Positions 11,001 to 40,535 of a DNA stretch of 40,535 bases are shown here, piece by piece. The notes under the pieces were generated by a model, which did no database searches, was not told the DNA's origin, and was given only the letters and a program-made list of their open reading frames with translations. This DNA comes from a virus (lineage: Duplodnaviria > Caudoviricetes). Where the stretch lies: positions 1 to 40,535 of the IMG/VR virus record IMGVR_UViG_3300032218_002385; one strand, given 5' to 3'. Each line of letters opens with the position of its first letter. Within the stretch, counting starts at the first letter, position 1. The translations under genes and the position numbers were made by a program.

Positions 11001-14000
11001 GTTCGTTGTCATAAAATGCCGGCAAGTCAAAGTCGTTTACAGTACCGTTATATTGATCAAATCCATCGTATATTAAATTGAATTCACGTATTTGTACATG
11101 ATACGGTTTGACTTCTTGTATATAATCTAGTACAAAATCTTGGTTGTCTCGACGATAAATTTGATACGGTACTAGTTGGCGTATTGTATGATCAACATCA
11201 ATCAGACTGGTCTTAGTTAACCAATTTGGTGCCTGTTGCTCGCTCAAAATGTAATTAAACATCAGAATCAATGAGCGGTTGCGTTCAATTAAAAGATCGC
11301 CAGTGAACAACTCTTGATTAATTGCCTGTATAATTTTACGTGTTTCAATTACAGGTTCCTGATCGTAGAATTGTGCATCAAAGACTTCTACATCAAATCC
11401 GTAACGGCCAACACTATAATCCCACAACTTGTTAGAAAATTCTATTGTACCGTCTTGCAGTCCTACCCGGACCCAGGAATTAGTGTCGGAGAATTGATAA
11501 AGCTCCCACTTGCCTTGACTATTTGAAGTTACTTTAGCAACGCTGTTGACCGGAACAAACAGAGTCTCCAATGCAGAATACACTGGCACCTCTGTTAATA
11601 CTCTTGTTAGAGGATCGTAGCCAGGTGCAAACCAATTGATATGATTCCAGTATAGTTTAGTATCATAATTTTGAACTCGCACTAATTCTAATGTCTTTGA
11701 TCCTGGCGCATAGTCAGATATGACTTCGTAAATGGTCCATAGACCGTTGTAGGAAGAATTACTTACTACCAGATATTTGTAGCCGAGCGGAACTGTGGCA
11801 AGATCCTGATAAGATAATTCTTCGTTGTTGGCTACTCTAAAGTCCCATGCACCTGATGACCGACTAGGTTCAGATTCTTCGCTATTCAATAATGAAAATT
11901 GGCGAGTCTCTGTTGTAGGATACTGATTAAGAATCAGGTTGGCACGTGATAGATAATTTTTCAGTGCCAAGAAACGATTAACAAACATGCTTTGACGTGG
12001 GCGTGCCTGTGTACCGTATTGTTCGCTTATGCTCAAGAAAGGATCCGGAACTGGATTTCCTACTACATCAGATCCGCAGAAACTATCTTGCAACTTGTTA
12101 TAAAGCACATCAGCCAAGAAACCATCTGCACGATCCTGTGCCACTAATTGGTACTCTACGTGTACTGCATTATCATTAAGAGTCTGGTCGTATCCAACTT
12201 GCAAAATTGTATCCTGAGCAGAAATATAGTCTGCTCCGTTGTAGATCGCAATTGTGCTTGAATTAATAGGAACAACATAGCTGATGCCACTGCTTCTTGG
12301 ACTTTCGATATATTGGGCAATAACAGTTGTGCTAAGAGTTTTCTTAGCAAATGTGTTTACTGTATTAATACCAGATACCCAGAAATAGTATTCTAACGCT
12401 ACAATGCCTTGTTCATTCAATGAGCTGTTGATTGAGTATCTGCTGTTGCTAAACGGTACACCAGGGCCTGTGTATTGAATTGGTGGCACCGAGCTTGAAA
12501 CCCATTGATACACATCTATTGTACTTCCTGGAAACACTTGTCCCCATCTACGACTAGCATAGGTAATGTCATCCTGATTAGGATCAATAAATCTAACGCT
12601 TGAAGTATCCCACCATATTTGCCCAACTCGTGACTGCCGCCACGCACCGCCGTAATTGTTAACAGCGCCTGCATTATACTCAGCAGGATCGATTGCACCT
12701 GTAAAATTGATATTCTGAGCAACAACACCTAATAGGCGTCCTTGCAATGGATTAAAATAATCAAAATATTGTTTGGTATTTCCAGCAACACGATCGTACA
12801 TGTAAACTGTGTTTAGCAGAGAAACATCTACTACTGGCTGCTGTTGTCTAATTGCTTGCCAAGCTGGTTTCAAGTTAATATTTTGATATGATACTGCGTT
12901 ACCACTGTTGTCTTGACTGTCATTGAAGTCTGTACCAGGAGATCCTATTAACAATGTTCCGGTTGTATAATCTATTGCTGCGCCAAATTGTGCAGATGTC
13001 TGACCGCGATTGGTGTATAACTGTTGACCAAATGCAAACTGACCTGGGTTGACCACAGATGCATTAACCGATGGAAGGAAGTCATATGAATATACTACTC
13101 CGCTTTGCAGTATTGTATCAAAGAAAACTGTACTACTTGAGTCAAAGGTAGTACTAGTTTTAGTGATAGCGTTTACATCAAATGTTGTAAGTTCTATTAA
13201 GGAACCGTTTGGTGCGCCTACTAGCAGTGTGGTAGTATTTTCGCTGATGAACAGTTCTCGTCCAAAGTTTGCAAAGTCCTGCTGAACAGGTGCTACGATT
13301 GTCTGTTCATGCACATAGACTGGCCAACTCAGATCTGTGAATACTGTTCCTGTGCCTGGTAGAACTTGCACTTTATTCAGAGCTTGTGCGGATTGAATAT
13401 TTTTAGCTGAGATAGTTAATCTGCCAGATACCACTGTTATGACACTATATGCATAAGGTGCTACTACAAATGTCACGGTCTGAGTAGTATTGTTGTAGGT
13501 GTAATTAACACCCAGAGTCTGTACTACATTATCAACTAACACTAGCGCAGTATACGAATCAGCAGCTGAATAAATTGTTCCTACATCAAACGCCGTAGTT
13601 GCACCGTCTGCAATTATTTCAAGATTGTCAGTCACAGCAGCCTGAGCATTGGGAATAGAAGCTGCATTTATATCTGCAGCCAATTGTTCAACAGTTGTCC
13701 CGGTCACTTCTACAAAGTAGTTGTTGACTCTGACAAAATCACCTGGTGTCAATACAGGGTTAGCAACGGTACTAGATATAGTTCCATAAACTCGTGCCTG
13801 ATTTAAATTAAATTCTACCTGGCCAGATTGTATAGCCGGCGTATTGGCAAATGGTGCGCCAACATATAAACTACAATCATTTACACACTGATCAACTACA
13901 TAACCAAATTTAGCATTTGCAGCTGGATTGTCAGAGTAAATTGTTTGTACCAAGTTAAATTGATTTGTTTCAATTGTTAAAATATCACCAATGTTGATGG

Positions 14001-17000
14001 TAGTATCTAATGTTACTGTATTGGAAGATACTGAATATGTGCCGCCAATGGTGCCCAACTGATTCAACAAGAACTCACCGTTTAGTTCAACTTGTGTAGG
14101 CAATATCAATGGCAATTCTGGAGTATATGATAACACACCAGTATCAGCTATCTGGAAGTTTTGTACAGAACGGTCAAATACATATACCGATCCTGCTTGT
14201 GTAGACACTTCGCCAGTTACTGGATCAGTGTAGGTTGATACAGGACATCCAACTATCAGTTGACGACCGTTTGTTGTTGTTGTAATGCTGTGCCCAAAGC
14301 GGTCAGTTGACGCAAGTCCGGCTACAGTGATTGTATCTACCAAGGCATAATATGTTTCTGCGCGAATAGAAATTACAGTACCTGCAGCAGGTGCTGTATT
14401 AAAAACTAAATTGTGAGAACTGTCTGCTGCATAATCATAATCTAATTTTAATCGTTGTAGAGAGTCGTTGATATAGACGCTAATTGAAGCACCTATATCA
14501 TTGCCTACTGATAAAGTAGCAGGGTAAATGTTAGACAAGTCAAAGGTAGTTGTTACTCCATTACCCAATAGGAGTTCGGCACTTCGTCTGGCAATTGTAA
14601 TTTTCAGGCCAGAAGTTGGCGGAGTTGAAAATACTACATACACACCACTGGTTGTGTAATCAACACCATAAGTTAAAACAACATTTTCTAATACAACTAC
14701 TAATTGGTCACCTGAATCAACTGTAATATAATCACTGTAATTAAACAATGTGTCTGACCCAGTTGCATAATATTCCACAGATTGTGGCTGATAATCTACA
14801 CGTCCGTAAGCGTATACACGATTTCCGCCTGGAGCACCAACATACAGCCAGCGTTCGTCCTGGCTCATTGTGACAGAATAACCAAATTCATCTGCAGGAG
14901 TTGCTGCTTCGGCAGGTTCAATTAGCAGTAATTGCCATTGTTGAAAAGCATTACTTGCAGGGTTTCTATAAATGACTGCTGCATATCCAGCATTACTCAT
15001 ACTAGCACTTGCACCAGCAATGACCCAGGCTTGATTGCCCATGTCTATTGCATTGCCATAACCTACTGTACCTGTTGTGCCGAGTTCTAAGATAGAATTC
15101 TGTGCATAAACATCGTTCTCTGTTTTAACATATGTGTATACAGCACCGGTAGTGTTATATCCAGGTGCACCAATAAGAGCACTTAGATTTTGTAAGCCTT
15201 GACTTATGCTTGCACCAAATTGAGAATTTTCAACTGTTATCTCGGGCGCAATTTCAATTGAATCTGTGAATGGTTCTAATTTTTCCAATACTTCCCATAG
15301 GCCTGCACCGTTGTTGTCAACCCAGATTTTAAGGCCTGGGAAAAGTGGTCGTGCATATGGTAAGTTGACAATGTCAGATGGCTGGGCGACACGCAGAGAA
15401 TCAAGTGTAAAGCCGACTCCAAGTCCGGTATATGTTGTTTGGTTACCAACAAATACAAAATCAATTAGCAACGAGGTTATACCAGACACATACTGTACTC
15501 GGTATACTCCGTCAACTGTTGCATCAAAGAATCTGATTATTAGAATATCACCCTCTGACAATCCGTGCGGGTTAGTAAATTGTACTAATGCCCGATTGTT
15601 GAGATTATTACTAACTGATGTTATGTTTCCAGGCACCAACGATGTGCGATATACATTCCACTGATATTCATTTATTTTGGCTACCCAGACAGTAGTTCCT
15701 ACACCAATTGCAGTTGAACTCAACTGTGGGCTAACCAGTTGCAGAGTTTCCAAGTCAAATACGTTTATATCTACATCATCAAAATTAACATAGCCTGCTG
15801 ATGGCAAACCAATATCAGTAGGAAGTGTTGTAGTAGTTGGGAATATGTCAGTAGATGTGAGTTTTAAACTAGACTTCCAAACATTTTCTAATAGTATTGC
15901 CTGGTCAGCTGAAGACTGTTCTTGAGGCATTACCACTTGTACCAGGCAAGGGTCGCTGTGCAATAATGCTTCATTCAATCTGAAATCAACAAAGCTTTGA
16001 CTAGCAGTAGCGCCATATGTGCTACGCAAAACTGCCCAGTATTCATTAATGTCGTAGGTGGCTGTTTCTTTGCCTAAGTTGGCTAAACTAAACAATTCTG
16101 CAGATTGCAAAGTACCTTTTGTGCCCAAGAACTGTTGATACAAATTGACCTGGCTTACATCATCTAGGTTCAATGCCTGCATGTATTGACGTGGTCTGAA
16201 TCCAATTAGCCCGTAGCTGAATAAATTAACTTCTTGCTCAAGATTAGCATTGTACACACTATATGCTGCTGCCAGCTGATCGCTAGAGTTAGCAGCATTG
16301 GACAACAGCCCTTTTTGTATTTGATTGTAATCGCTCTTGATCCAAAGATTATAATTAAACGCCTGGCTAGGCTGAATGATCGTACTTGACGACCAATATT
16401 CATTCTTGAATAGAACAATTTCACCCTTGGCATATTTGCGATTTGGCGACCACTCAATTATGTTGTCCTGATTTAGTACAAATCCAGGTGCGTTAACTAA
16501 TCCAGTCCAATCGTTAGTGATCCAACCAGATACTAAAACTCGACTCTGTCGAGAGCCAGTGATCTTGTCATATATAAGATCCGCAAAAATGCTGCGATTG
16601 TCCAGAATAACAATATGTTCGTATGCTGTAAATCTCAGGTTCAAGAAGTTTATAGTATTGTTTGTCAATGTTGACACGCGGAACAAATTGTCAACGCGAT
16701 CAATTACTAAATCACCAATTGGCAAGGCTTGACGATTTTGATTTAAAATAATGTCATCAGGAGAATATGTTAAAATACTATCCACAATTGCCTGAGGACG
16801 AGAGATTGATATGCGTGTGGCAGCAGGATTTAGATTTACGATAGATCCAACTGCCCAACCTTGCTGGCTCCAGTATATAAATTCTTGACACATCTGGAAC
16901 CAATCCAAGATATAACCATTTTCTCTTGACTCAAACAAGAAACCTTGCTTTTGCAGCAGCGCACCGTAGCTGACCAAGAAGTCGCACACACTGGCCAAGG

Positions 17001-20000
17001 TTGTAAACACATAACCGTACGGAACTTGAACTACATTATTGGTGTGTTCGGTTGCAACTCTGATCTGTGTCTCTACAGCAGAAATAACTGTGTTTCTACC
17101 TGCAGTACGAGATACTAATATTTCAAAAAATGGCCGTTGCGTACTATAACCCAGTACTGCCCACCCGGTGTCAACTTTCTGCACAATAACAGAGCTGTAG
17201 GTAACTTGCTCAAATGGTTGATCTTTGTAAAGCAATAATGAATAACTTTCATCAGGCAATATCAATCCAGCATTAGTACTGCCTGGAGTAGATCTTTCTG
17301 TATAAATTTTGAGATAATTCTTATCAGTAAATCCTGCTACTCTCCAGCAGAGTCTGACATCAATATTATTCAATGTCACTGTGAGATTGTCAGTGCTGTT
17401 TATACCCAGCTGGCAATTGTAATCAACGATCCAATCTAAGTAGCTGGCTTTGCTTGTGCCGTTTCCATACAACGGGGTCAGTTCGCCGGCATTTAAACGA
17501 TAGCGGCCGTCCCACAAGAATTGTTCCAGTGGCTGATTGTACACATAACGATCTCTGTCAGAGAACAGGCTAAAGAACTTGGCAGGTTTAGTTAAAGCCA
17601 GCAATCGCATTGCTGCAAAAGGCCAAGCACTGCTGGTTCGCCATACATTCTCTACTGGACCGTCGTCGCCAAAAGTCCAGCTACGGCGGAAACTTGTTGC
17701 ATCGTAATTACCAATTACAGCAGCCAATGGATCTAGTAATTCACCTTCTGATCCAACCGGTAATACTGTCAATAAGTCTGGACGAATATAACGAGGATTG
17801 ATCGTAGGGTTTACAGGATCTTTAATTAGACCTGCTGCTAAATCATCCCATAAAACTGTATTGCCACTGGTGTATGGCGCAGGTCCATATTCATTTTCCC
17901 ACCAGCTGGGTTTTTGCATCAATCCTAACATCTCCCACGGAGTTGTGTTGGGAGTATAAGTGTCATAGAAATAGTTGTACAGTCCTCGCCAAGCCCCTGC
18001 AGATACAGATTCACCTGTTAAACGATCGCTACTCTGACTGTAATTGTATGTAAACGGATCAGCAGATCTATAATACTGTTCAGTGTAATCAAGCTTGTTC
18101 CAACCTACCCAGCTCAAGAAGTCTACACTTAGAATATTATTAATTTGTGCCAGTGTATAATCAGTAGTTCTGAATTGTCCTGGCATAACATCTGTTACTA
18201 CTAACGGAATTGGTGAAACTATTTTCAAGTTGTTGAAGATTCGTCTTTCAAATTCCAATAATACCTGGTCTCTGATGTCGTTAAATGCCAGAGTAATTGA
18301 ACCGTCGTGTCCTCGTATCACTGTTTTAGGAGTAATATAACTTGAGTCTAAATATATAGCTGGCAGATAAGATGGATACAATCCCATCTTTGTTGGAGTA
18401 TTAGGAACGTAACTTCCGTATGTCTCAGGATACTCACGAATAGTTATAACATCGCCAATTGATAACGGTACTGTAATAGTTAAATTAGGCTGGTCAACAG
18501 CAACAGTATAGTCGTAGTTAACGGTCAGTAACACACCATTCAAGTATACCAATAATCCCAAGTAGTTTGATGCAGTAAAGTCATATGTCTGAAGTGTGTC
18601 AAAGACTGGGGTGCTAATTGCAGAGTAAGTGTAAGTGTTCTCAGTGTATGTTTCGCCCGACGGAATCATGTCAGACCAATAGAACGGACTTATATTACTA
18701 CGGCCAAGACTAATTTCTTGCAGCACTGTATCTAATATTTGATTAGCTGCGAGGTGTTCAAAATCTCCGTTAGTCACAAGATCCAACATAAAGGCCTTGT
18801 ACTTGGCGTACTCTTTACTGTTAAATTCAATGGCGTTAAACAATTCAAACTGTTTTTCTCTGAGAAATATACCAGTCAGTGTCAGTGGTGCTGAGTTTTG
18901 AATTATTAAGTCACCGTAACGTAAGATATCGCCAAGGTCTCTTGTGTTGTTGGCACCAACAATAGGGCCTTGAATTGTTCTTAGGTTTTGCCCAATGGTT
19001 TCATAATGGGTACGTATAGTTCCTAACGTAAACGTATTACTATTTTCGTTTAACGGATTGTTTTCTAAATTAAGTGGAATTTCGTAGAACCCAGTGGTAC
19101 TGGCAAAGTTACTAATTGCCTGTACTTCCACAATAGTACCAATCAGAATTGGATTTACAGTCGATTCAAGTAAAGTAATTACTGTAGTATTATTAACTAT
19201 TTCATACACATATCCAGTGGGATCGATGAATACGCTGTCTTGGAAAATTTGTAATGGAGCAAATACTGTATTAGTATCCACAGGTACATCAATGATCAGA
19301 GGTGCACCTTCATAAGTGAATCTGAATGTCTGACGACTACGGTTTTCTTCTGCAGCTGGTTGCCATCCAATTAGATTGCTAAATGAAATTCGATCTATAT
19401 ATTGTTGAACAAATCCGTTGCTTATCTGTTCAGTATAGCTGACATTGTCTTGAACATAGATAAAGGTATCGGTATATAGATAGTTTTCAAAAACTATGTC
19501 ACCCACGTTATTGATATTCAGAAACTTCAGCGGAAATCCCAATATTGAATCGGTGATGTCTGTTGAACCTAAGGCATATCCAAATAATTTGCTTCCGGTA
19601 AAGTTTGTGCTGACATATTTTAGTCTGTCAGAAAAACTAACACCGCTGTTATCAACAACATCAAATAACGGCGGTTGATTTACCTGAGTTTTTTGCTGAG
19701 CCAGTGTCCACGATGATCCGTTGAACCAATAGCTTTTTCCCTGCTGAATTATACCGCTTAGGCATACTACAGTCTGATCAACTAGAATTGCACTATCTTC
19801 AGTTGGTATCAAATCAATTATCAATGTGCCAGAATTGTCTGGATCAATAAACTGAACTTCATAGATTTTGTTACGTACTTGCGGATCTAAGTCGGCAGCA
19901 AATATTACTCTGCTACCGTTGATAAATGTGTAACCGTCGATACTATAACCCAATTGACCGTTGATGTCAGAGAAAGCGTCTGTTGCATTAAAGTCGATTA

Positions 20001-22044
20001 TGTTGACTGGATTTTTTCCTTGCGTACCAAAGTTATATAAGTTAAGATTAGCGCGGAATTCAATAATAGGTCGTTTAGCCCGGAATTCATTATTGAGAGA
20101 TAAAATCTGATTATTGTATACCGCAGTGGCACGAATTACATCAATGTGGAACCAACGATTACTGCGTGTCCAAGCATTGCGATCATTGCTAGCACGATTA
20201 ATAGTAATGTAGTCCTGAATTTCCGGTGCATTTAAAATAGCATCATACGGTGAAGAATCGTAACTGGTGCTGTCGTAGGGAATACTACTGCTGAGAGTAT
20301 AAGTTTCCGGAGTAACAAATTCAGTTACCGGAATAAGTTTGATACCGTTGCCTCCAATGGCACCTATAACTGGTGTGTTAGGAAATGGTGCTCCATCTGG
20401 GCCGCCGGCCCCGGTGTTTAATATACTTTCTTCAATGGTATCGTAGATATACTGTTGAAATGTTGTTACGTCTGACAGACCTGTTATCTTCTGACCGTCA
20501 ACAATATGGAATGCACCAAAATATGCTTCGCCGTCAACAAATCCAACTCTTGCTGCAATGCCAGGTCCTGTTCCAACTCCCTCAACGTAGTATTCAAGAT
20601 TTTGAAACTGCGGAGGTTCAACAATTCCACGGAATTGAACTTTTAGTCCATTGGTTAATATTACACCGTTTGGGCTAGTATAATTTTTTGCGCCAATAAT
20701 TTCGTTGGCATCGATGATTAATTCATCACCAGGATTGACTAATTTAATTTGACCAAATATGGAAGGGTTCACGCTGTCTTGATACCATAGCGTATCTAAC
20801 ACAGCAGTTAATAAAGGAATCTGCTCAAAATACCCAGATGCATCTTTATACCACTGAGTACTGGCATTTTGTGTACCAAACTTAATGGTAAATTTACTAA
20901 GGTTAGGTACTTGTATAATACTGGTTAATCGCATGTAAGGATTGCCGGCTTCGTCATTGATATATTGTATTTGCCATACGCTATATCTTTGTGCCTGGCT
21001 ATCGATGTTGGTAGTCTGATCAAAAGCTGTAGTATCAAAGCTACCTGCGAGTCCGTTATTATCGTCGTCTCGCAACAATGGATCAAATTGAGTTGTTACT
21101 TGCCATCCGCCGTCTTCTGAATCAGCAACAGTATTAGTAAATATTACAGTGCGATTTTGTAAGTTTGTAATACCGTCAATACCACCTGGGTACTGAGATA
21201 AAAATTCACTTACGTATACGTTATTAAGTTGATTAAACTTCAATCCTGTAATTAGGTCAACTGTGCCATTTTGATACCCAGCCGGCATTGGTAAAATATC
21301 TAAGGTGTAGTAGAAATCCTGTGCAGTATTCAGCGGCACGTTAAATGTTACTACGCCTTGATCTTCACCGTTGTTTTCTACTCCTAGTACGTCTCTGCTG
21401 CTGACATTGGGAGTAGCAGGCATACTGCCGCTAACACCTGGCGCAGCTTGTATCCAAAAATTATATCCGGGTTGATTTACTACAAATTCATAGTTGCCAC
21501 CACGCATTAATGTGATAACAGGATTGTTTCCTGCTAAGTCACTGAAGTTATACGCATCGGTAACACGAGTAACGTCCCATGAATCAGTTGTTGGAACATC
21601 TGTTCCTGCAATATCAACCGAATCTGGTCCAGCTGCAAGCCAATAATATTGGCTGTAGTTAGTAAACTTGTCAAGGTCGCAAAACGGATCCCATGAATAA
21701 TATTCACTCTCAAACAAGCGATCTTGCTTCTGAGTGTTGGCACCCTTAAGAGCAAGTGCATCAATTATGCCAGGATATGTTATAGCATCTTCTGCTGTGT
21801 TAGTGTCAGGTTTTAAAAATATTACGCCGGGTTCTAATTGATAATCTGCACGTACAGCAGTGGGCTCAACTATGTAATGATCAGCAGGGTTAACCTCGGG
21901 ACCAACTCTACTTCCTACGTATCCCTGTGTACGTTTAAAATTAGGCTCTTGGGTCAGTTGATCCAATGTTGCACTTAAAAATTGCTTGTTTGTATCAGTG
22001 CGGAAAATCTCAGGTAATAGATCTACGGTGCGACGTGTAGCCAT
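8080..22044 (-). CDS. Giant (4654 aa) baseplate wedge-associated structural protein, gp7-like, with beta-propeller, Ig-like and carbohydrate-binding-like modules
   Basis: Uninterrupted 14-kb ORF coupled (TAATG) to gp6. The N-terminal LLPEIF and a late VKPYH motif recall gp7/P2 gpI wedge proteins. It has seven FG-GAP-like repeats, repeated G(N/D)GxTTxF...V.V...DY...F..AP modules and two CBM5/12-like W-x5-Y-x2-G-x2-V motifs. Confidence 0.75.
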   Translation of the reverse strand: MATRRTVDLLPEIFRTDTNKQFLSATLDQLTQEPNFKRTQGYVGSRVGPEVNPADHYIVEPTAVRADYQLEPGVIFLKPDTNTAEDAITYPGIIDALALKGANTQKQDRLFESEYYSWDPFCDLDKFTNYSQYYWLAAGPDSVDIAGTDVPTTDSWDVTRVTDAYNFSDLAGNNPVITLMRGGNYEFVVNQPGYNFWIQAAPGVSGSMPATPNVSSRDVLGVENNGEDQGVVTFNVPLNTAQDFYYTLDILPMPAGYQNGTVDLITGLKFNQLNNVYVSEFLSQYPGGIDGITNLQNRTVIFTNTVADSEDGGWQVTTQFDPLLRDDDNNGLAGSFDTTAFDQTTNIDSQAQRYSVWQIQYINDEAGNPYMRLTSIIQVPNLSKFTIKFGTQNASTQWYKDASGYFEQIPLLTAVLDTLWYQDSVNPSIFGQIKLVNPGDELIIDANEIIGAKNYTSPNGVILTNGLKVQFRGIVEPPQFQNLEYYVEGVGTGPGIAARVGFVDGEAYFGAFHIVDGQKITGLSDVTTFQQYIYDTIEESILNTGAGGPDGAPFPNTPVIGAIGGNGIKLIPVTEFVTPETYTLSSSIPYDSTSYDSSPYDAILNAPEIQDYITINRASNDRNAWTRSNRWFHIDVIRATAVYNNQILSLNNEFRAKRPIIEFRANLNLYNFGTQGKNPVNIIDFNATDAFSDINGQLGYSIDGYTFINGSRVIFAADLDPQVRNKIYEVQFIDPDNSGTLIIDLIPTEDSAILVDQTVVCLSGIIQQGKSYWFNGSSWTLAQQKTQVNQPPLFDVVDNSGVSFSDRLKYVSTNFTGSKLFGYALGSTDITDSILGFPLKFLNINNVGDIVFENYLYTDTFIYVQDNVSYTEQISNGFVQQYIDRISFSNLIGWQPAAEENRSRQTFRFTYEGAPLIIDVPVDTNTVFAPLQIFQDSVFIDPTGYVYEIVNNTTVITLLESTVNPILIGTIVEVQAISNFASTTGFYEIPLNLENNPLNENSNTFTLGTIRTHYETIGQNLRTIQGPIVGANNTRDLGDILRYGDLIIQNSAPLTLTGIFLREKQFELFNAIEFNSKEYAKYKAFMLDLVTNGDFEHLAANQILDTVLQEISLGRSNISPFYWSDMIPSGETYTENTYTYSAISTPVFDTLQTYDFTASNYLGLLVYLNGVLLTVNYDYTVAVDQPNLTITVPLSIGDVITIREYPETYGSYVPNTPTKMGLYPSYLPAIYLDSSYITPKTVIRGHDGSITLAFNDIRDQVLLEFERRIFNNLKIVSPIPLVVTDVMPGQFRTTDYTLAQINNILSVDFLSWVGWNKLDYTEQYYRSADPFTYNYSQSSDRLTGESVSAGAWRGLYNYFYDTYTPNTTPWEMLGLMQKPSWWENEYGPAPYTSGNTVLWDDLAAGLIKDPVNPTINPRYIRPDLLTVLPVGSEGELLDPLAAVIGNYDATSFRRSWTFGDDGPVENVWRTSSAWPFAAMRLLALTKPAKFFSLFSDRDRYVYNQPLEQFLWDGRYRLNAGELTPLYGNGTSKASYLDWIVDYNCQLGINSTDNLTVTLNNIDVRLCWRVAGFTDKNYLKIYTERSTPGSTNAGLILPDESYSLLLYKDQPFEQVTYSSVIVQKVDTGWAVLGYSTQRPFFEILVSRTAGRNTVISAVETQIRVATEHTNNVVQVPYGYVFTTLASVCDFLVSYGALLQKQGFLFESRENGYILDWFQMCQEFIYWSQQGWAVGSIVNLNPAATRISISRPQAIVDSILTYSPDDIILNQNRQALPIGDLVIDRVDNLFRVSTLTNNTINFLNLRFTAYEHIVILDNRSIFADLIYDKITGSRQSRVLVSGWITNDWTGLVNAPGFVLNQDNIIEWSPNRKYAKGEIVLFKNEYWSSSTIIQPSQAFNYNLWIKSDYNQIQKGLLSNAANSSDQLAAAYSVYNANLEQEVNLFSYGLIGFRPRQYMQALNLDDVSQVNLYQQFLGTKGTLQSAELFSLANLGKETATYDINEYWAVLRSTYGATASQSFVDFRLNEALLHSDPCLVQVVMPQEQSSADQAILLENVWKSSLKLTSTDIFPTTTTLPTDIGLPSAGYVNFDDVDINVFDLETLQLVSPQLSSTAIGVGTTVWVAKINEYQWNVYRTSLVPGNITSVSNNLNNRALVQFTNPHGLSEGDILIIRFFDATVDGVYRVQYVSGITSLLIDFVFVGNQTTYTGLGVGFTLDSLRVAQPSDIVNLPYARPLFPGLKIWVDNNGAGLWEVLEKLEPFTDSIEIAPEITVENSQFGASISQGLQNLSALIGAPGYNTTGAVYTYVKTENDVYAQNSILELGTTGTVGYGNAIDMGNQAWVIAGASASMSNAGYAAVIYRNPASNAFQQWQLLLIEPAEAATPADEFGYSVTMSQDERWLYVGAPGGNRVYAYGRVDYQPQSVEYYATGSDTLFNYSDYITVDSGDQLVVVLENVVLTYGVDYTTSGVYVVFSTPPTSGLKITIARRSAELLLGNGVTTTFDLSNIYPATLSVGNDIGASISVYINDSLQRLKLDYDYAADSSHNLVFNTAPAAGTVISIRAETYYALVDTITVAGLASTDRFGHSITTTTNGRQLIVGCPVSTYTDPVTGEVSTQAGSVYVFDRSVQNFQIADTGVLSYTPELPLILPTQVELNGEFLLNQLGTIGGTYSVSSNTVTLDTTINIGDILTIETNQFNLVQTIYSDNPAANAKFGYVVDQCVNDCSLYVGAPFANTPAIQSGQVEFNLNQARVYGTISSTVANPVLTPGDFVRVNNYFVEVTGTTVEQLAADINAASIPNAQAAVTDNLEIIADGATTAFDVGTIYSAADSYTALVLVDNVVQTLGVNYTYNNTTQTVTFVVAPYAYSVITVVSGRLTISAKNIQSAQALNKVQVLPGTGTVFTDLSWPVYVHEQTIVAPVQQDFANFGRELFISENTTTLLVGAPNGSLIELTTFDVNAITKTSTTFDSSSTVFFDTILQSGVVYSYDFLPSVNASVVNPGQFAFGQQLYTNRGQTSAQFGAAIDYTTGTLLIGSPGTDFNDSQDNSGNAVSYQNINLKPAWQAIRQQQPVVDVSLLNTVYMYDRVAGNTKQYFDYFNPLQGRLLGVVAQNINFTGAIDPAEYNAGAVNNYGGAWRQSRVGQIWWDTSSVRFIDPNQDDITYASRRWGQVFPGSTIDVYQWVSSSVPPIQYTGPGVPFSNSRYSINSSLNEQGIVALEYYFWVSGINTVNTFAKKTLSTTVIAQYIESPRSSGISYVVPINSSTIAIYNGADYISAQDTILQVGYDQTLNDNAVHVEYQLVAQDRADGFLADVLYNKLQDSFCGSDVVGNPVPDPFLSISEQYGTQARPRQSMFVNRFLALKNYLSRANLILNQYPTTETRQFSLLNSEESEPSRSSGAWDFRVANNEELSYQDLATVPLGYKYLVVSNSSYNGLWTIYEVISDYAPGSKTLELVRVQNYDTKLYWNHINWFAPGYDPLTRVLTEVPVYSALETLFVPVNSVAKVTSNSQGKWELYQFSDTNSWVRVGLQDGTIEFSNKLWDYSVGRYGFDVEVFDAQFYDQEPVIETRKIIQAINQELFTGDLLIERNRSLILMFNYILSEQQAPNWLTKTSLIDVDHTIRQLVPYQIYRRDNQDFVLDYIQEVKPYHVQIREFNLIYDGFDQYNGTVNDFDLPAFYDNEQNLFVSPILDNSEPPVSTTSSLPSTSPIWQTLPWNQWFQNYLLEIESATVVDGGTGYTVPPDVIVTGDAIVNAVMTARVNTAGSVVAVDIIDPGVGYSTTPVITFVGGNGIGARAVPVTGNQLVRNILTTIKYDRYEYQSSIVAWEPNGSYDNGTLVRYDNRVWSANSDDSTSVDSPTFDTDQWTLVPAAELTGVDRTMGYYNPRVNEPGLDLALLISGVDYPGVQVSGPDFNQNTGFDVGNFDINPFDNIAYGPEGLPTYDPAILDTIYTSDFTDPYLGTLPSSINVDGGAFVDQYSSHAPEELVPGAIFDTLDMRVFTTPGADWEDNGHGFPESTRKYVYAPGLSSTMSFQGLLPYPITLAVYNFSSGVQLIPGTHYTTNWVAQTIQVTAGVFNGDIIGITVYALGGGSQQYTNSFNGADVGNRLVIPVQYSLINEIVVFVNGQLVTNFTFAQYGSFDTRISFSNTYVSTDLVTVTAMGFQTPQYSWSAPQTQYFVANGSLTFTLTNSLEGTNPANIIVEKNGIRARPSASVEYIDDGSSIQYYCPTHVGYSPAVVANNDVSLYIDNVPQVLGVDFVLDPWNGSSEARTITLSSMPDSGAKILISVRTAAQYYLSGNTLIWNNSGSLIPILGDIISVTTFNDTAEQDMLTQVFVGPMVEGVTIAQGYDTTDFDEALLSNTLGSFDYSTGSQIITNKFDTGRIITDPSRLTVTLDGFYLFNGNGYTVDGTFIIITGPAITAAQVVVITSFTQNVVPGEIAFRIFQDMRGLQSTYRITNDTSTTLTQDCSAVDNVIHVANAAALSEPNLPQGIFGLITINGERIAYRNRDTVANTISGLRRGTAGTGAADHVTGTDVYDIGIGNLLPAEYQNYTVNENFLANGSTTVFATEIVVTDATAVEVYVGGILQTSGYTVSAINPVVITFTTAPTENYQVTILVVKGKSWYTPGSGTASDGIPLQEQETLAARFIRGN

Positions 22045-33975: not shown

Positions 33976-34917
33976 TTGTCCGATACCCCTATAACTAAAC
34001 CAGCAAAGGCATTGCCGCCCAAGGCACCACCCAGAGTAAACTATCTCAACAACAGAGATTTATTAAAACAGATTCACCTAAGCAAAAATACGTACTGTAC
34101 ATATCGCGATCCTGTAACGGATCATCAATACGACATTATTTTGCCCAGTCTTGACAAGATCAACCAACGCACAGTAGCAGAAGCTAGACGCAATCGTGCA
34201 GATCGACTTAAAAGAGAAACAGGTGTAGTGCAAAACGAAAAGAAAATCCCCAACACTGATCTGGTGTTTAGGATTACATGTTGGGATCATATACCAATTG
34301 CTGCCAAGAAAATACCCAAGGTAGTAGCAAAAAAGAAAAAACTACAAGACATCTTAGAATTAGATGAGCCAGTAGATGATGTATTAGCCGATATTGTTGA
34401 TGAAGTAGTATTAGATCCAACACATGTACGTGTAAACTTTCCTCCGTTTTATCATTACAGAATTACCGAAGAAAAAGAACCGTACCTGGTGGGCAAAAGC
34501 CATTGGAAAGGAGACTTAGTCGCAGGCGAGTACAGTAGGGATCACGGAACAATGACTCCCGAACTAGCACGTATGTTCCTAAAGCTATGCGAACGATATG
34601 CGACTCGCAGCAACTGGAGAGGCTATACTTACAACGAAGAAATGCGTGGACAAGCACTACTGCAACTTAGCCAAATTGGATTACAGTTTGATGAATCAAA
34701 AAGTCAAAACCCATTTGCTTATTATACTGCTGCTATCACTAATAGTTTCACTCGTATTCTAAATATAGAAAAGAAAATGCAGAATATCCGTGACGACATT
34801 TTGGAAATGAACGGACTTAACCCGTCCTGGACTAGACAAAACTCTAACAAGGCATATCAAAAGCCCGGCGAGGTTACCATAATTGATCCCAGCACATATA
34901 TTTTACCCGAAGAATGA
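33976..34917 (+). CDS. gp55: Sigma factor for late transcription (T4 gp55-like)
   Basis: Contains VNYLNNRDLL, FLKLCERYATRSNWRGYTYNEEMRGQAL and FDESKSQNPFAYYTAAITNSFTRILNIEKK. The gp55-gp47-gp46 synteny is as in T4-like phages. Confidence 0.9.
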   Translation: MSDTPITKPAKALPPKAPPRVNYLNNRDLLKQIHLSKNTYCTYRDPVTDHQYDIILPSLDKINQRTVAEARRNRADRLKRETGVVQNEKKIPNTDLVFRITCWDHIPIAAKKIPKVVAKKKKLQDILELDEPVDDVLADIVDEVVLDPTHVRVNFPPFYHYRITEEKEPYLVGKSHWKGDLVAGEYSRDHGTMTPELARMFLKLCERYATRSNWRGYTYNEEMRGQALLQLSQIGLQFDESKSQNPFAYYTAAITNSFTRILNIEKKMQNIRDDILEMNGLNPSWTRQNSNKAYQKPGEVTIIDPSTYILPEE

Positions 34918-35804
34918 TAGAGATTACAATTAGCAGTCCGTACTTTGTTGCAGATAAAAATTCAATACTGCTTACAGACGCTAACTTTAACCACTATTTA
35001 AATACCCCGGAGCAGTTTCATACAAGCCTCGGGGATATCACTGTCAGGAACTTACTAAAAATTGCCGAGCGCAGATGTAAGTTTATTTTTATCAACGACG
35101 GGTTTGATAACAATTTATTGTTGTTCGAAAAAACAAAAATATTTTTAAATTCTATATACGATACACACAACGTCATTGGATATGTACGACCGGGGCCAAT
35201 GACATTTTCAGAGCCATCTGTGCCTGTTCTTGCAGAACCTGGGATATGGGTTTTTGGTTGTAGCTTGAGTGCCGGAGTAGGCGTCGAAGCCAATGAAGTA
35301 TACTCGGCAAAGCTAGGGCAATCAGTGGGGCTACCAGTTACCACTGTTGCAAAAATAGGAAGTAGCACACAGTGGAGTTTAAGACAACTACTAAACGCCA
35401 ATCTACAAGCCCAAGATATTGTAATTTGGCAATTAACCACCATTGAACGTTTTACTGTAAAGCAACCTGGTGCTTGGCCAAAAGAAGTCATGCTCAAGGA
35501 TCAACCTAGAGAAATTGTAGTGTCAACAACAGACGAGCAACTTTGGTTTGACCAGATTAGTTTAGTCGAGTACGGTGTAAAATACTTGCGAACAGCCGGG
35601 ATTAAATTTTATATGGTTAGTTTGGATAGCAAAAGTCCAGTTCTGGACCGTTGCTTGGAACAGTATACCCGTTATCCAGAATACTGCTATGTACCGGACT
35701 GGCAAGTTGATTTAGGAACTGACGGTTTACATCCAGGTCCCGAGAGCCATCATTTGCTTTACCAATTCTTAAAGAAAAAAATTATGCTGACCCAAAGATG
35801 TTAA
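34914..35804 (+). CDS. SGNH/GDSL-like hydrolase (acyl-esterase/transferase fold)
   Basis: Block I-like VFGCSLSAGVG, block II-like AKIGSS and block V DGLHPG. It has an ATGA overlap with gp55. Confidence 0.65.
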   Translation: MIEITISSPYFVADKNSILLTDANFNHYLNTPEQFHTSLGDITVRNLLKIAERRCKFIFINDGFDNNLLLFEKTKIFLNSIYDTHNVIGYVRPGPMTFSEPSVPVLAEPGIWVFGCSLSAGVGVEANEVYSAKLGQSVGLPVTTVAKIGSSTQWSLRQLLNANLQAQDIVIWQLTTIERFTVKQPGAWPKEVMLKDQPREIVVSTTDEQLWFDQISLVEYGVKYLRTAGIKFYMVSLDSKSPVLDRCLEQYTRYPEYCYVPDWQVDLGTDGLHPGPESHHLLYQFLKKKIMLTQRC

Positions 35805-35836: not shown

Positions 35837-36853
35837 ATGGCTAACTTATTCAACAAAGCAATACTATTCACCGATATACATTTCGGTCTTAAATCCAACA
35901 GCTTGATTCATAATTCTGATTGCGAAGAGTTTGTGTCGTGGGCAATCAAACTGGCTAAAAAAGAAGGATGCGAAACTGGCTTCTTCCTGGGAGACTGGCA
36001 TCATCATCGAGCCAGTTTGAATTTGCAAACTATGAACTTTAGTTTGCGTAGCCTAGAGAGACTAAGCCAGGCGTTCGATAAATTTTTCTTTATACCAGGA
36101 AACCACGATCTCTACTATCGCGACAAACGAGATATTCACAGTGTTGAATGGGCCAAACATTTACCTAACATTCATATTTGTAACGATTTTATAAAAATGG
36201 ATGATGTAGTTATTGCGCCCTGGTTGGTAGGTGATGATTACAAAAAAATTCAAAAATTAAGTGCCAAGTATATGTTTGGACACTTCGAGCTACCGCACTT
36301 TAAGATGAATGCCATGGTCGAAATGCCTGATCATGGTGAACTCAAAGTTGATAATTTTACCGGGTTCGAAGAAGTCTTTTCTGGTCACTTCCATCTAAGA
36401 CAAAAGAAACGCAATGTTAATTACATTGGCAATTGTTTCCCGCATAACTTTGCCGATGCCGGTGACGAGCAGAGAGGTGCTACTATACTTAACTGGGGAT
36501 CAGCTCCAGAGTATCATGCATGGCCCAAGCAACCGTTGTATCGTGTATTAAATTTAAGTCAGGTAATTGACAATCACGCTAACTTACTTTCTGACAGAAT
36601 GCACATTCGTGTGCAACTGGATATTGAGATTAGCTACGAAGAAGCCAGCTACATTAAAGATACTTTTGTTCAACAATATAATCTAAGAGAAATGGCATTA
36701 ATTCCCAGCAGAAGCAGCGAAGTAAGTGAAAATATGGTAACAGGAGATGTACACTTTGAATCAGTTGATCAGATTGTCATTGACCAGATTACCAGAATTG
36801 AAAGCGAATTTTATGATCCTGCTCTGTTACTTCACATCTACAACACACTTTAA
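35837..36853 (+). CDS. gp47: Recombination nuclease subunit (Mre11/SbcD, T4 gp47-like)
   Basis: Metallophosphoesterase motifs TDIHFG, LGDWHH, PGNHD, GHFE and SGHFH. Confidence 0.95.
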   Translation: MANLFNKAILFTDIHFGLKSNSLIHNSDCEEFVSWAIKLAKKEGCETGFFLGDWHHHRASLNLQTMNFSLRSLERLSQAFDKFFFIPGNHDLYYRDKRDIHSVEWAKHLPNIHICNDFIKMDDVVIAPWLVGDDYKKIQKLSAKYMFGHFELPHFKMNAMVEMPDHGELKVDNFTGFEEVFSGHFHLRQKKRNVNYIGNCFPHNFADAGDEQRGATILNWGSAPEYHAWPKQPLYRVLNLSQVIDNHANLLSDRMHIRVQLDIEISYEEASYIKDTFVQQYNLREMALIPSRSSEVSENMVTGDVHFESVDQIVIDQITRIESEFYDPALLLHIYNTL

Positions 36854-38010
36854 TGTTTAGTCAATCTGTTATTGATCGTGTCCAAGAAAAATTTGGTTAT
36901 ACGTCTGTAGACAACATCAACTTGGCCGAATACGAATTTAATCACTGGGACGCATTGTATCGTCGCTTGGAAAAGCTAAAGCGTACAAAATGGCAGCCCA
37001 ATGAAAAAATATTCATACATCAGTTTGATACTCAATTTTTTCTTGGCAGTACTGGATTTTCAATTTATAATTTTAATTTGATAATACAGCATCTTGATAT
37101 TGATCCTTCGGTATTTGTTATCTTGACCACTTACTATAAGAGTCAAGACTCTTGGTTGCAGTATTGCAATCATCCCAACAATCAGTTCCAGGTGTTAGAT
37201 TTACCGTTTACCGAATATCTTATGCCTGACAGCACAATGTTTCAATCGTTTACTGATAACTGTAACTATCATTTTAATGTAATGATTGGAATGGAAAGAG
37301 TCCACCGTAAACTGTTGGCCAAATTCTTAATAAAAAATAATCTTGTTGAAAAAAATATTGTTAAAATTAATTTAATCAACAACCCTGAGATGTTTACCCA
37401 CACAGTTGAACCATTGGATCCTGCACTGGGTCTTAGGTTTTTAACAACAGACCCAATAGTGGTATCAAACGAACATTGGATTCACAGTAAATTTTTATCT
37501 GACCTGCATCTATCAATGGATCAGATACCCAGTGTGACTAATTCAAAAATATCAGATTATACATCGTTCGCTACCGTGTATCAGCAAAATGATCGCAAGA
37601 TAACTTTTTCTGTACAAAGAAATTGGACTGCATGCGATTGGTATCAGGAAGTGTTTGTTGACATTGTGCCGGAGACCGTGTACAATTATCCATACGCTTG
37701 TTTTAGTGAAAAAATAATGCGACCCATAGTAGCAGGACGTCCGTTTATTCTTTTTGGTGCTGCACACACATTAGAATTTTTGCATCACCTGGGATTCCAG
37801 ACGTTTGACGACTACTGGGACGAATCATACGACGGCATGACTGACCCAAATCAACGTTTTGAAATGTTGTGTTCGGTCGTGCAAGAAATTGCAAGTTGGC
37901 CAATTGATCTGTGCCGGAAACATTTACAATCAATGAAATCTATATTCCAGCACAATCAGGAAATCTATAAACGTATTATAACAAATCAAGTTGACTATGT
38001 TACAAATTAA
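36853..38010 (+). CDS. Glycosyltransferase-like protein (GT-B/GT10-like C-terminus)
   Basis: VDIVPET...FSEKIMRPIVAGRPFILFG...LGFQTFDDYWDESYD resembles the E-(N/T)...(T/S)EK motif of alpha-1,3-fucosyltransferase-like proteins. It is coupled to both neighbours. Confidence 0.55.
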   Translation: MFSQSVIDRVQEKFGYTSVDNINLAEYEFNHWDALYRRLEKLKRTKWQPNEKIFIHQFDTQFFLGSTGFSIYNFNLIIQHLDIDPSVFVILTTYYKSQDSWLQYCNHPNNQFQVLDLPFTEYLMPDSTMFQSFTDNCNYHFNVMIGMERVHRKLLAKFLIKNNLVEKNIVKINLINNPEMFTHTVEPLDPALGLRFLTTDPIVVSNEHWIHSKFLSDLHLSMDQIPSVTNSKISDYTSFATVYQQNDRKITFSVQRNWTACDWYQEVFVDIVPETVYNYPYACFSEKIMRPIVAGRPFILFGAAHTLEFLHHLGFQTFDDYWDESYDGMTDPNQRFEMLCSVVQEIASWPIDLCRKHLQSMKSIFQHNQEIYKRIITNQVDYVTN

Positions 38011-39754
38011 AACTATTACCGCACGTAACTTTCTCAGTATTGGTAACGCTACTCAGTCTGTCAATTTTGACCGACGAGATCTTACACTAGTACTTGGAGA
38101 AAACTTAGACTTAGGTGGTGACGGTGCCCGTAACGGAGTAGGCAAAACTGCTATTCTCAACGCACTCAGCTATGCGCTGTACGGCCAGGCACTTACTAAT
38201 ATTCGCAAAGATAATTTAATCAACAAAACCAATGCCAAGCACATGTTGGTCACATTAGATTTTAATTTTAACGGCCACGACTATAGAATTGAACGAGGCC
38301 GGAAGCCCAACATATTACGATTTTTTATTGACAGTGAAGAAAAAGTTGCCAGTGATAATTCACAAGGCGATTCAAGAGAAACACAAACTGCAATTGAACG
38401 CATGTTGGGCATGAGCCCTGACATGTTTCGACATGTAGTGGCTCTCAACACTTACACTGAACCGTTTTTAAGTTTGAAAGCAAACGAACAACGTACTATC
38501 ATTGAACAATTGCTGGGCATTACCATGCTGAGTGAACGTGCCGAAAAGATCAAAGAATTAAACAGACAAACCAAAGACGGCATTACACAAGAGGAGTTTC
38601 GCATTCGCGCTGTACAAGAAGCCAACAAGCGAATTGAAGAACAAATTGAAGCATTGCGTAAGCGTCAGAAGATGTGGACCAACAAGCAGACAGAAGATGT
38701 CGGCAAGCTCAATTCAGCTATTGTAAGTCTGGAACACATAGATATCGAAGCGGAACTTGCTGCACACAAGGCCTTGACAGAATACAACAATCTGTTTAAA
38801 GAACGTGCTGATGCAACCAAATCATTGACCAGAGCCCGGCTTGATCAGGACCGAGAACGCAAGACTTCAGACAAGTTAGCAGCAGAAGTAGCTGCATTGT
38901 TAGAACACAAGTGCCACGCATGCGGACAGGACCTGCATGACGACAAGCACGAAGCTATTATTGCTGTCAAGCAGGATGAATTTGATAAAGCCTGTGTTGA
39001 AGTTGACTTGCTGGGTGTTGGTATTATGGAGTTGGAGAACGAATTAGAAGACTTAGGCGAAACTGGCCCACCTCCGATCGTATTTTACGATACGCTAGAA
39101 GATGCACTTAATCATCGCAACAGCCTTGAAGCACTTCGCAAGGAACTTACAACACGATCAGCAGAAACAGATCCGTATGGCGAGCAAATTGTTGACATGC
39201 AAAATCAAGCCTTGCAAGAAGTCAGTTACAGCCACATGAACGAATTAACACGCCTGCAGGAACATCAAGATTTCTTACTTAAATTATTAACCAACAAAGA
39301 TAGTTTTATACGTAAGAAAATTATTGAACAAAATCTTAGTTATTTGAACACACGGCTCACTCACTATCTAGATCGAATTGGATTGCCGCATACAGTGGTA
39401 TTTCAAAACGATCTTACAGTCAGTATCGAAGAGCTGGGACGAGAATTAGATTTTGATAATCTCAGCCGTGGCGAGAGAAACCGATTGATCTTGAGTATGT
39501 CATGGGCATTTCGAGATGTGTTTGAAAGTTTATATCAACCGATCAATGTACTGTTTATTGACGAAATGATTGACTCTGGCCTAGACACACAAGGTGTAGA
39601 AAATGCACTGGGTCTATTAAAACAGATGAGTCGAGAAAGACAAAAAAGTATTTGGTTAGTGAGTCATCGTGACGAGCTGGCAGGTCGTGTAGAAAATATC
39701 TTGCGTGTGGTTAAAGAGAATGGATTCACAAGTTATAACACAGAGATTGAATGA
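37997..39754 (+). CDS. gp46: Recombination ATPase subunit (Rad50/SbcC, T4 gp46-like)
   Basis: Contains RNFLSIGN, Walker A NGVGKT, a coiled coil with zinc hook CHAC, signature LSRGE, Walker B FIDE and H-loop VSH. The ATG at 37997 is preferred as start. Confidence 0.95.
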   Translation: MLQIKTITARNFLSIGNATQSVNFDRRDLTLVLGENLDLGGDGARNGVGKTAILNALSYALYGQALTNIRKDNLINKTNAKHMLVTLDFNFNGHDYRIERGRKPNILRFFIDSEEKVASDNSQGDSRETQTAIERMLGMSPDMFRHVVALNTYTEPFLSLKANEQRTIIEQLLGITMLSERAEKIKELNRQTKDGITQEEFRIRAVQEANKRIEEQIEALRKRQKMWTNKQTEDVGKLNSAIVSLEHIDIEAELAAHKALTEYNNLFKERADATKSLTRARLDQDRERKTSDKLAAEVAALLEHKCHACGQDLHDDKHEAIIAVKQDEFDKACVEVDLLGVGIMELENELEDLGETGPPPIVFYDTLEDALNHRNSLEALRKELTTRSAETDPYGEQIVDMQNQALQEVSYSHMNELTRLQEHQDFLLKLLTNKDSFIRKKIIEQNLSYLNTRLTHYLDRIGLPHTVVFQNDLTVSIEELGRELDFDNLSRGERNRLILSMSWAFRDVFESLYQPINVLFIDEMIDSGLDTQGVENALGLLKQMSRERQKSIWLVSHRDELAGRVENILRVVKENGFTSYNTEIE

Positions 39755-39796: not shown

Positions 39797-40225
39797 ATGA
39801 CATGGCAATACCAAGGAGAGATAATCAATGAACTACCCGAAGATGCTGTTGGGTTTGTCTACTTGATCACCAATATTGCAACTGGCAAGATGTATGTGGG
39901 CAAGAAGCTCGCAAAGTTTGCTAAGACCTCATACAAAGTAGTAAAATTAAAGAATGGCACTAAAAAACGTAAAAAAATTAAATCAAAAATAGATTCTGAC
40001 TGGCAACAATACTACGGCAGCTCTCCCAATCTCACAGAAGACGTCAACCAGCAGGGCACAGACAATTTCAAACGCGAAATATTATACTACTGTAAATCAA
40101 AATCCGAATGCTCGTACATAGAAGCACGTGAACAATTTTCACGTCGAGTACTTGAATCTGATGACTACTACAATGGTCATATTCAAGTACGTGTACATGG
40201 ATCACACATAAAAAATAAAATTTAA
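39797..40225 (+). CDS. Compact GIY-YIG family nuclease-like protein
   Basis: GFVYLITNIATGKMYVGKK, YYGSS, FKREIL, catalytic-type E in YIEAREQ, and YYN. It has a Lys-rich insertion and no C-terminal DNA-binding domain. Confidence 0.8.
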   Translation: MTWQYQGEIINELPEDAVGFVYLITNIATGKMYVGKKLAKFAKTSYKVVKLKNGTKKRKKIKSKIDSDWQQYYGSSPNLTEDVNQQGTDNFKREILYYCKSKSECSYIEAREQFSRRVLESDDYYNGHIQVRVHGSHIKNKI

Positions 40226-40273
40226 ATCAGCAGTACCATCAACTTTACAGGCAACGATCGGCAGTAACGACCA

Positions 40274-40535
40274 GCACCAGTTAACTTCGGGTGCCCTAAA
40301 CCTGGACGAAAGTCTCAGGGATGGAAGTCTTCTCGCTGCAAGAAGCACTCAATCACTATCCGTAACAGGACGAGGATCGCGAACTGCTGCGGTTTGATTG
40401 TTTGAAAAGATAAAACAAAGCAAAAAGAGGGACAGTGAATTCCCAGATTTATACATATGACTGCGTATGTGTATAAATTGCCGTTGTATAAGACGGAGCT
40501 CGAGGTACAGGACAACCGCCTCTGTAATGCTCTAA
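40274..40535 (+). ncRNA. Candidate large structured non-coding RNA (3' end probably beyond the window)
   Basis: About ten consecutive stems: GCACC/GGTGC, CCTG-GAC-GAAA-GTC-T-CAGG (GNRA loop), CTTCT/AGAAG, TCC/GGA, ATCGC/GCGGT, TTGTTT/AAACAA, GGGA/TCCC, a 13-bp stem at 40447-40478, CCGTT/GACGG, and GAGGT/GCCTC nested in GAGC/GCTC. No credible ORF is present. The G-U pairs favour the + strand. Confidence 0.7.

Follow-up and report, generated by a model that had tools for sequence, protein, structure and literature searches.

The 40,535-nt stretch of DNA analysed here (the window) is a fragment of a T4-like phage, 12% complete by CheckV. Its baseplate and virion genes lie on the minus strand, and the late sigma factor, gp47, gp46 and a GIY-YIG gene lie on the plus strand (Table 1). 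A 4654-aa ORF (8080-22044) is found among the tail genes, and the genes between gp55, gp47 and gp46 (34914-35804 and 36853-38010) have no Pfam or PHROG match. The GIY-YIG family, phrog_447, carries the label 'NAD synthetase' in PHROGs and in many GenBank records, an apparent misannotation. By gp46, the nearest cultured phages are PA5oct (51%), Phosso (47%) and Atu_ph07 (44%). Two relatives are near-complete, at 345,369 and 346,856 bp (94% and 100% complete). The complete 347-kb phage (G158) has a two-piece (permuted) tmRNA inside a cluster of more than 20 tRNAs (C1:110821-111310; L447), which may hint at the host.

The GIY-YIG gene is followed by a structured element. Because the window is the whole available record, the element is truncated at the contig end; the relative used to continue it, locus L002, is 96% identical to the window over the last 310 nt and holds the full element at 3427-3920. 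Fifteen of 80 related contigs (L001-L080) likewise terminate within 500 nt past the GIY-YIG match, probably because assemblies break at a segment common to many strains.

Table 1. Positions of the features at the right-hand end of the window and, where marked, in locus L002
Feature	Position	Strand	Remarks
gp46/SbcC-like recombination nuclease subunit	37991..39754	+	phrog_77, E 1.5e-94; last of gp55-gp47-gp46
142-aa SegE-like GIY-YIG nuclease	39797..40225	+	PF19835; usual upstream neighbour of the RNA, replaceable
5' domain of the RNA (Polynucleobacter-1 motif)	40269..40403	+	13 covarying pairs in or touching it
Variable hairpin, often GNRA-capped	40429..40445	+	covariation analysis
Long hairpin	40447..40478	+	compensatory change in 11/12 pairs
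Pseudoknot from the loop of the long hairpin	40461-66 with 40535-40540	+	6/6 pairs with compensatory change; 3' side mostly from L002
Most conserved core	40480..40533	+	CCGUUGU; GUAC-GG-ACAACCGC within GAGG/CCUC stem
GUUGU/ACAAC pseudoknot in core	40483-87 with 40512-16	+	0.98 paired; 3/5 compensated
Stem enclosing core	40495-99/40529-33	+	covariation analysis
Contig edge inside the element	40534..40535	+	continuation read from relative L002
Repeat 1 (L002)	3764-70
Repeat 2 (L002)	3821-27
DNA-type hairpins (L002)	~3875-3914

A conserved RNA that extends the Polynucleobacter-1 motif

The original prediction, made from the letters of the window, described 40226-40535 as a non-coding region tiled with hairpins and proposed a large, possibly undescribed, structured RNA or ribozyme. 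No credible ORF is present, as only a 66-aa and an open 72-aa minus-strand frame overlap the region. In 80 loci fetched through the GIY-YIG protein, the 310 nt are conserved throughout and the element runs about 175 nt further; the gap to the next gene in relatives is typically 400-500 nt. The sole Rfam match in the window is Polynucleobacter-1 (RF01718), whose whole model (1-141) is matched by the 5' domain at 109.1 bits against a cut-off of 37. This is a clean match of the kind that the original prediction had named as removing its novelty. In the available part of Weinberg et al. 2010 (PMC2864571), the motif is listed for Burkholderiales and fresh water as a possible cis-regulator; no function is assigned to it there or, since then, in the open-access texts that were found. 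The motif covers no more than the initial 135 nt of the element, which is about 450 nt long, and most of the copies seen in this analysis reside in jumbo phages. The epithet 'undescribed' thus fails for 40269-40403 and stands for the remaining ~175 nt and for the module past the contig edge, which are uncatalogued.

Covariation was assessed in 75 distinct type-A sequences kept from 113 full-length copies after near-duplicate removal. The alignment was made by sequence only, and pairs were scored against a tree-shuffled null made for this analysis. Thirty pairs pass E 0.1, and 24 of these are at least 80% canonical. Apart from those of the Rfam part (Table 1), seven lie elsewhere in the window and five in the tail; the others are one pseudoknot pair (40464 to just beyond the edge) and four column pairs that covary mostly by identity. 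Covariation in these phage relatives supports the consensus helices of Polynucleobacter-1, reaches the window edge and includes pseudoknots. A large, conserved and covarying structured RNA, as predicted, is therefore supported.

Eight of the ten hairpins proposed at the outset hold in the alignment. The hairpin at 40274-94 is paired in all cells (1.00), with compensatory change in 5/5 pairs; 40301-19 is paired in 0.92 (outer) and 0.88 (inner), with 2/3 pairs compensated each. Similar support was found for 40329-45 (0.96; 4/5 compensated), 40376-93 (1.00; 2/4), 40430-44 (0.91; 2/3), the long hairpin (0.93 paired, G-U 182 versus A-C 11) and the element at 40495-533 (0.94; 4/5). The hairpin at 40359-70 survives as an invariant CC/GG only, with 0/3 pairs compensated. 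The other two are contradicted by competing helices: in 40398-418 (0.58 paired), positions 40396-98 pair with 40352-54 instead, and 40481-96 (0.82; 0/4) gives way to the core pseudoknot. Plus-strand structure at the RNA level was correctly anticipated for the part within the window, where GNRA loops and the G-U bias are seen. Folding energy by itself is close to chance, which goes against the original prediction. The z-score is -1.89 in the window (5/100 shuffles as good) and -1.02 on the reverse strand, and the medians of 14 relatives are -0.55 (plus) and -0.5 (minus); thus the structural case rests on covariation. Long-range GUCU/AGAC and AGGC/GCC helices are unsupported in the alignment test. 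In line with the original prediction, neither Rfam nor ARAGORN gave a match to tRNA, tmRNA, RNase P, SRP or group I/II introns. Nothing supports identity with a ribozyme, an intron, GOLLD or ROOL.

After the same gene, relatives carry type A (as in the window), type B or type C RNA (B and C, for example, at L078:3427-3780 and L037:3427-3830 and in L081-L200). Type B combines the type-A core with a different 5' half, and type C has a different core, found in about 750 viral stretches. Types B and C gave no Rfam match at E 10 (one locus each); their covariation is weaker yet present (13 and 8 pairs, respectively, at E 0.2). A possible likeness of type C to GOLLD gained no support from Rfam at the same threshold, and the type C motif had no match in five supplementary files of Kretsch, whose gapped alignments would hide it. 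The 3' module of any one type is also recognised by the profiles of the others. Nearly identical nucleases stand beside different RNA types (98.6% identity between L037, type C, and L038, type B; 95.7% between L021, type C, and L062, type A), which indicates modular exchange of the 5' RNA. These pairwise identities were used because a quick GIY-YIG tree (111 rows, type C subsampled) had 15 label changes, of which strong branches force only two.

The GIY-YIG gene lies within 1.5 kb upstream in 65/72 A/B loci and 73/74 C loci, and the RNA core follows in 65/67 GIY-YIG loci, with an unrelated gene in between in 5/65 (L004, L030, L033, L038 and L052). A RusA-like resolvase takes its place in L227 and L236 and, by eye, in L258. 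In L209, L220 and L284 the RNA has other settings, the latter two copies being directly downstream of consensus sigma-70 promoters. No GIY-YIG gene was found elsewhere in the five contigs whose RNA has none nearby (contigs 5-26% complete). PA5oct, Phosso and GAP32 carry RusA-like or endonuclease VII resolvases at the position of the GIY-YIG gene. Since both GIY-YIG genomes are without either type, the nuclease is likely, from gene content, to substitute for a resolvase.

Among prokaryote genomes, three of 121 core-motif matches are real elements, and the others are without the A/B 5' domain or GIY-YIG. Divergent viral copies of the core motif in L270 and L301 have no usual tail, and three copies occur within 6 kb of a Cyclobacteriaceae chromosome (L322/L323). 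L374 and L393, with a type B element and GIY-YIG on contigs of 148-183 kb binned with a Haliscomenobacter genome, are phage contigs, either mis-binned or a hint at the host.

Twin repeats and mini-hairpins beyond the window

The tail of the element reads ACTC plus a 7-nt word, a hairpin, and (A/T)TCT plus the same word. The two copies are 48-72 nt apart around the hairpin, and their spacing is spread (over 48-68 nt in the counted type A, B and C copies) rather than helically phased. In L002 the repeats and the hairpins that follow correspond to 25-175 nt beyond the window edge. A duplicated 6-mer is present in 73/75 type A, 41/43 type B and 83/86 type C copies, and all seven copies missing the pattern retain a duplicated word with altered flanks. 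L124 (type C), L271 and L313 show such altered flanks; in L124 the duplicated word is 10 nt long and stands without ACTC/ATCT. The seventh base, which the pattern does not force, matches in 73/73 A, 41/41 B and 82/83 C copies. The words themselves are diverse, with 21 in phage copies and five others in the islands described below. The word is not enriched elsewhere in the two near-complete genomes, where 7 and 16 loose matches compare with about 15 expected by hand estimate.

Such covariation by identity can have three sources: one protein bound by both copies, one partner complementary to both, or gene conversion. The three bases before the repeats are invariant yet unequal (CTC versus TCT), and a TGAC-like block also precedes both; fixed unequal flanks would suit a protein. 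The type-A covariation analysis found no complementary covarying site for the repeats inside the RNA. As read from the sequence, the template strand at repeat 2 would itself be the complementary partner of repeat 1. The base after the word (+7, repeat 1/repeat 2) is G/A in 126 copies, G/G in 48 and A/G in none, an asymmetry confounded by a local stem that this G of repeat 1 also closes. The following base (+8) is C/C in 69, T/T in 43, T/C in 35 and C/T in 3; this asymmetry is significant in types A and C and not in B (p 0.42), among rows that are phylogenetically related. A mismatch bias for G over A and U over C, rarely the reverse, is what wobble of RNA on the template allows, and it fits template pairing.

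Past the repeats, the prevailing loops change from GNRA, an RNA-type loop, to C-GNA-G, a DNA-type loop found there on both strands. The type-A 5' part has 50 GNRA loops (45 not closed by C-G) versus one C-GNA-G triloop, and the tail has 75 C-GNA-G triloops (51 plus, 24 minus) versus four GNRA loops. According to the accessible portion of PMC13037366, mini-hairpins of this type have far greater stability in DNA form and are found where priming starts in G4 and RSF1010. Within each of the two 345-kb genomes, no C-GNA-G hairpin is longer than that of the tail. The motif GAGCG(N0-2)AGCGA was found in 118/195 tails (49/73 A, 17/40 B and 52/82 C) and nowhere outside the element in these genomes. It occurs once in ColE1 1-2500, 152 nt past the second G run. 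The strict motif is absent from the phiX174 pas, which speaks against a priming role. The final hairpin of L002 scores as a minus-strand terminator; no minus-strand sigma-70-like site was found over the element in that locus.

Copies in bacterial islands

In one small-genome Burkholderiaceae genus, likely Polynucleobacter given the name of the motif and its listed taxa, 17/151 genomes score above the Polynucleobacter-1 cut-off. The 21 loci comprise one phage-like contig with GIY-YIG (L493) and 20 islands, all of which contain the whole element and a divergent 145-aa gene and no GIY-YIG. This gene is DUF6641 in the three copies scanned; DUF6641 is absent from five phage records. Both repeats are readable in 18 loci, with identical words in 13, a G/A difference in two (L497 and L505, which differ by nothing else), a single transversion in one (L499, with one mismatch) and unmatched words in two (L502 and L506). 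A TAAATA box, which we take to be a T4-type late promoter, stands 32-66 nt upstream of the element in 20/20 islands, although these are related and do not count as 20 independent events.

Two islands, each about 10 kb long, have tRNA-Phe att repeats at their ends. They encode an integrase, a recombinase and an ATPase resembling clamp loaders (26% identity to the best match among phages), and no primase, helicase, Rep or capsid gene is recognisable in them; since 9/21 of their genes are without a Pfam match, a hidden Rep is possible. The ~10-kb islands (L485, L488-L519) lie integrated at tRNA genes and also carry a second recombinase and restriction-modification cargo; they are likely satellites of jumbo phages. 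Three island proteins (L511:8662-9123, L513:8590-8994 and L514:8774-9145) are proline/lysine-rich, have no family match and start like MKxxEI. Several phage proteins, including that of the gene adjoining the element in G156, start similarly, and this start is possibly a capsid-targeting signal.

A candidate primer origin and its alternatives

The twin co-changing repeats and the DNA-type hairpins past the edge point to a cis-acting function of RNA on DNA rather than to a free ornate RNA. We propose that the element may work as an R-loop primer origin, like those of ColE1 and T4, of the 345-kb T4-like lake phages, a reading to which we give about an even chance. The window region is likely the 5' two-thirds of this candidate transcription-primed origin. 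In this scheme a folded RNA, about 300 bases long, would attach to the DNA template from which it was copied, and the duplex would thereby be opened for priming. The RNA would come from GIY-YIG read-through or from its own promoter, and its fold would present repeat 1 for pairing with the template strand at repeat 2, a step modelled on ColE1 RNA II, in which an rG run pairs with a template dC run. The persistent R-loop would displace the sense strand. Priming of the leading strand would then fall to the RNA 3' end, and/or primase or helicase would be loaded by the exposed hairpins, GAGCG(N)AGCGA and C-GNA-G. As satellites of the phage, the small islands in bacteria would rely on this origin too.

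Each near-complete genome has one copy of the element, at 195 kb in G158, where the main tRNA cluster is about 80 kb away. Among the points against a primer origin, no skew inversion is seen at the element in G158 or G156, and 7-9 bp is a short anchor. RNase HI (PF00075) and T4 RNase H (PF09293, a profile that matched no control) were not found in five phage records; it is possible that a host RNase H serves instead. Shares are small in four RNA runs, where low-depth contigs cover the RNA and flanking genes alike.

ColE1 RNA II resembles the element in being a structured transcript with a sense-strand word present twice (G runs at L483 928-33 and 1175-80) and, by sequence only, in a GAGCGTAGCGA hairpin downstream on the same strand, which we take to be the primosome assembly site of ColE1. 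The ColE1 G runs, however, are about 250 nt apart, whereas here the words are mixed, 7 nt long and separated by 50-70 nt; antisense RNA I or Rop was not found, and this is a phage, not a plasmid. There is no sequence homology: the A, B and C profiles fail on ColE1 1-2500, and no Rfam RNA I/RNA II match was obtained. T4 oriF/oriG, for which the part of PMC4412123 used here describes R-loop priming from a promoter and a downstream unwinding region, provide a mechanistic precedent in a phage of the same kind, but no folded RNA or twin repeats are mentioned in that part. Promoters at the element are sigma-70-like in L220 and L284 and late-like in the islands. RSF1010 oriV (ssiA/ssiB) and G4 oriC have C-GNA-G or C-GNNA-G hairpins at their priming sites (PMC13037366, in part), but are protein-initiated and without a long RNA. 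By its 5' domain the element belongs to RF01718; it falls outside the ColE1, GOLLD/ROOL and guided-nuclease families.

Several other explanations were weighed against a primer origin. A free trans-acting RNA or RNP scaffold, following the logic of GOLLD, ROOL or raiA, in which the matching loops bind a protein dimer and the tail hairpins only terminate, would agree with the extensive pseudoknotted fold, the sigma-70 promoters of L220 and L284, the terminator-like last hairpin of L002 and the TGAC-like blocks. It appears unlikely, because 26 different words are identical within their locus, the tail loops are of DNA type on both strands, and 5' RNAs without detectable likeness have a common 3' module; high abundance was also not evident in the four RNA runs, a weak argument. 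GOLLD and ROOL are likewise large pseudoknotted phage RNAs of unknown function, but the element is shorter, lies far from the main tRNA cluster and ends in DNA-type signals. No covariance-model match to GOLLD, ROOL or OLE was obtained in searches of which a part matched no positive control, and a GOLLD locus sought as control was found in 0/1, 0/5 and 0/151 genomes. The unphased, variable spacing, the freely varying word and the directional wobble bias make it distinctly unlikely that the repeats are iterons of a DNA-level origin with single-strand priming hairpins, as in RSF1010 oriV, which the RNA only activates or regulates, even though the ACTC/ATCT flanks are invariant, hairpins occur on both strands, the spacer is A-rich, and short-repeat clusters lie in the syntenic GAP32 gap.

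A late-type promoter fits packaging equally well as replication. A transcription-coupled packaging (pac) or recombination signal for terminase or resolvase, copied by satellites, would account for the box in 20/20 islands, the usual resolvase or GIY-YIG neighbour and the islands without recognisable packaging genes. We nevertheless consider it very unlikely, as the mini-hairpins are of the priming type, the sigma-70 promoters of some phage copies suggest early use, and the element at 195 kb of G158 is away from the record ends (which may be arbitrary). Catalysis by a ribozyme or intron-derived RNA might be suspected from the core, about 45 nt of pseudoknotted and almost unchanging sequence, yet this seems highly improbable: even at E 10, Rfam shows no match to a ribozyme, an intron or RNase P, and the element is not inserted within a gene. 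Least probable is that the RNA serves the neighbouring nuclease as guide or cofactor. The close association of gene and RNA speaks for it, but nucleases nearly identical in sequence stand beside different RNA types, a RusA-like resolvase can occupy the place of the gene, GIY-YIG is missing from 20 island loci, and both GIY-YIG genomes are without RusA-like resolvase and endonuclease VII. No joint inheritance or co-evolution of RNA and nuclease was found.

If the R-loop primer origin is correct, ColE1-style RNA priming would extend to giant phages and their satellites, the known length of the motif would be tripled, and two uncatalogued RNA classes would be added. A wider proposal, possible but doubtful, is that T4-like jumbo phages, as a large group, initiate replication at an interchangeable RNA-programmed origin, with at least three differing folds on a common DNA priming module, copied by 10-kb chromosomal satellites. 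Close relatives would then exchange these RNAs in the manner of plasmid incompatibility types, with a self-matching 7-nt anchor delivered by each RNA; satellites, with a phage late promoter ahead of the origin, would gain access to the replisome of the helper.

No description of the origins of these jumbo phages was found in the open-access literature, and a DNA search of cultured phages with types A and C gave no match. A primer origin at the element would point to a syntenic gap in PA5oct, Phosso and GAP32, gene-poor, 0.8-1.5 kb long and lying between the resolvase and baseplate-hub genes, as the place to seek theirs. Since the A, B and C profiles fail on stretches of PA5oct, Phosso, Atu_ph07 and GAP32, these gaps are positional analogues only. 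The four ncRNAs reported from PA5oct RNA-seq in the consulted part of PMC7318152 are located elsewhere than the gap, and the portion of the PA5oct supplement searched lists no expression values for the genes by the names used. The PA5oct gap (L478:7149-8500) begins with a perfect sigma-70 promoter, and its tiny annotated ORFs may be spurious. In the Sinorhizobium phage Phosso, an RNase HI gene (L479:8428-8814) directly follows the 1-kb non-coding gap. The GAP32 gap (L481:6660-7450) contains several CAGTAC repeats.
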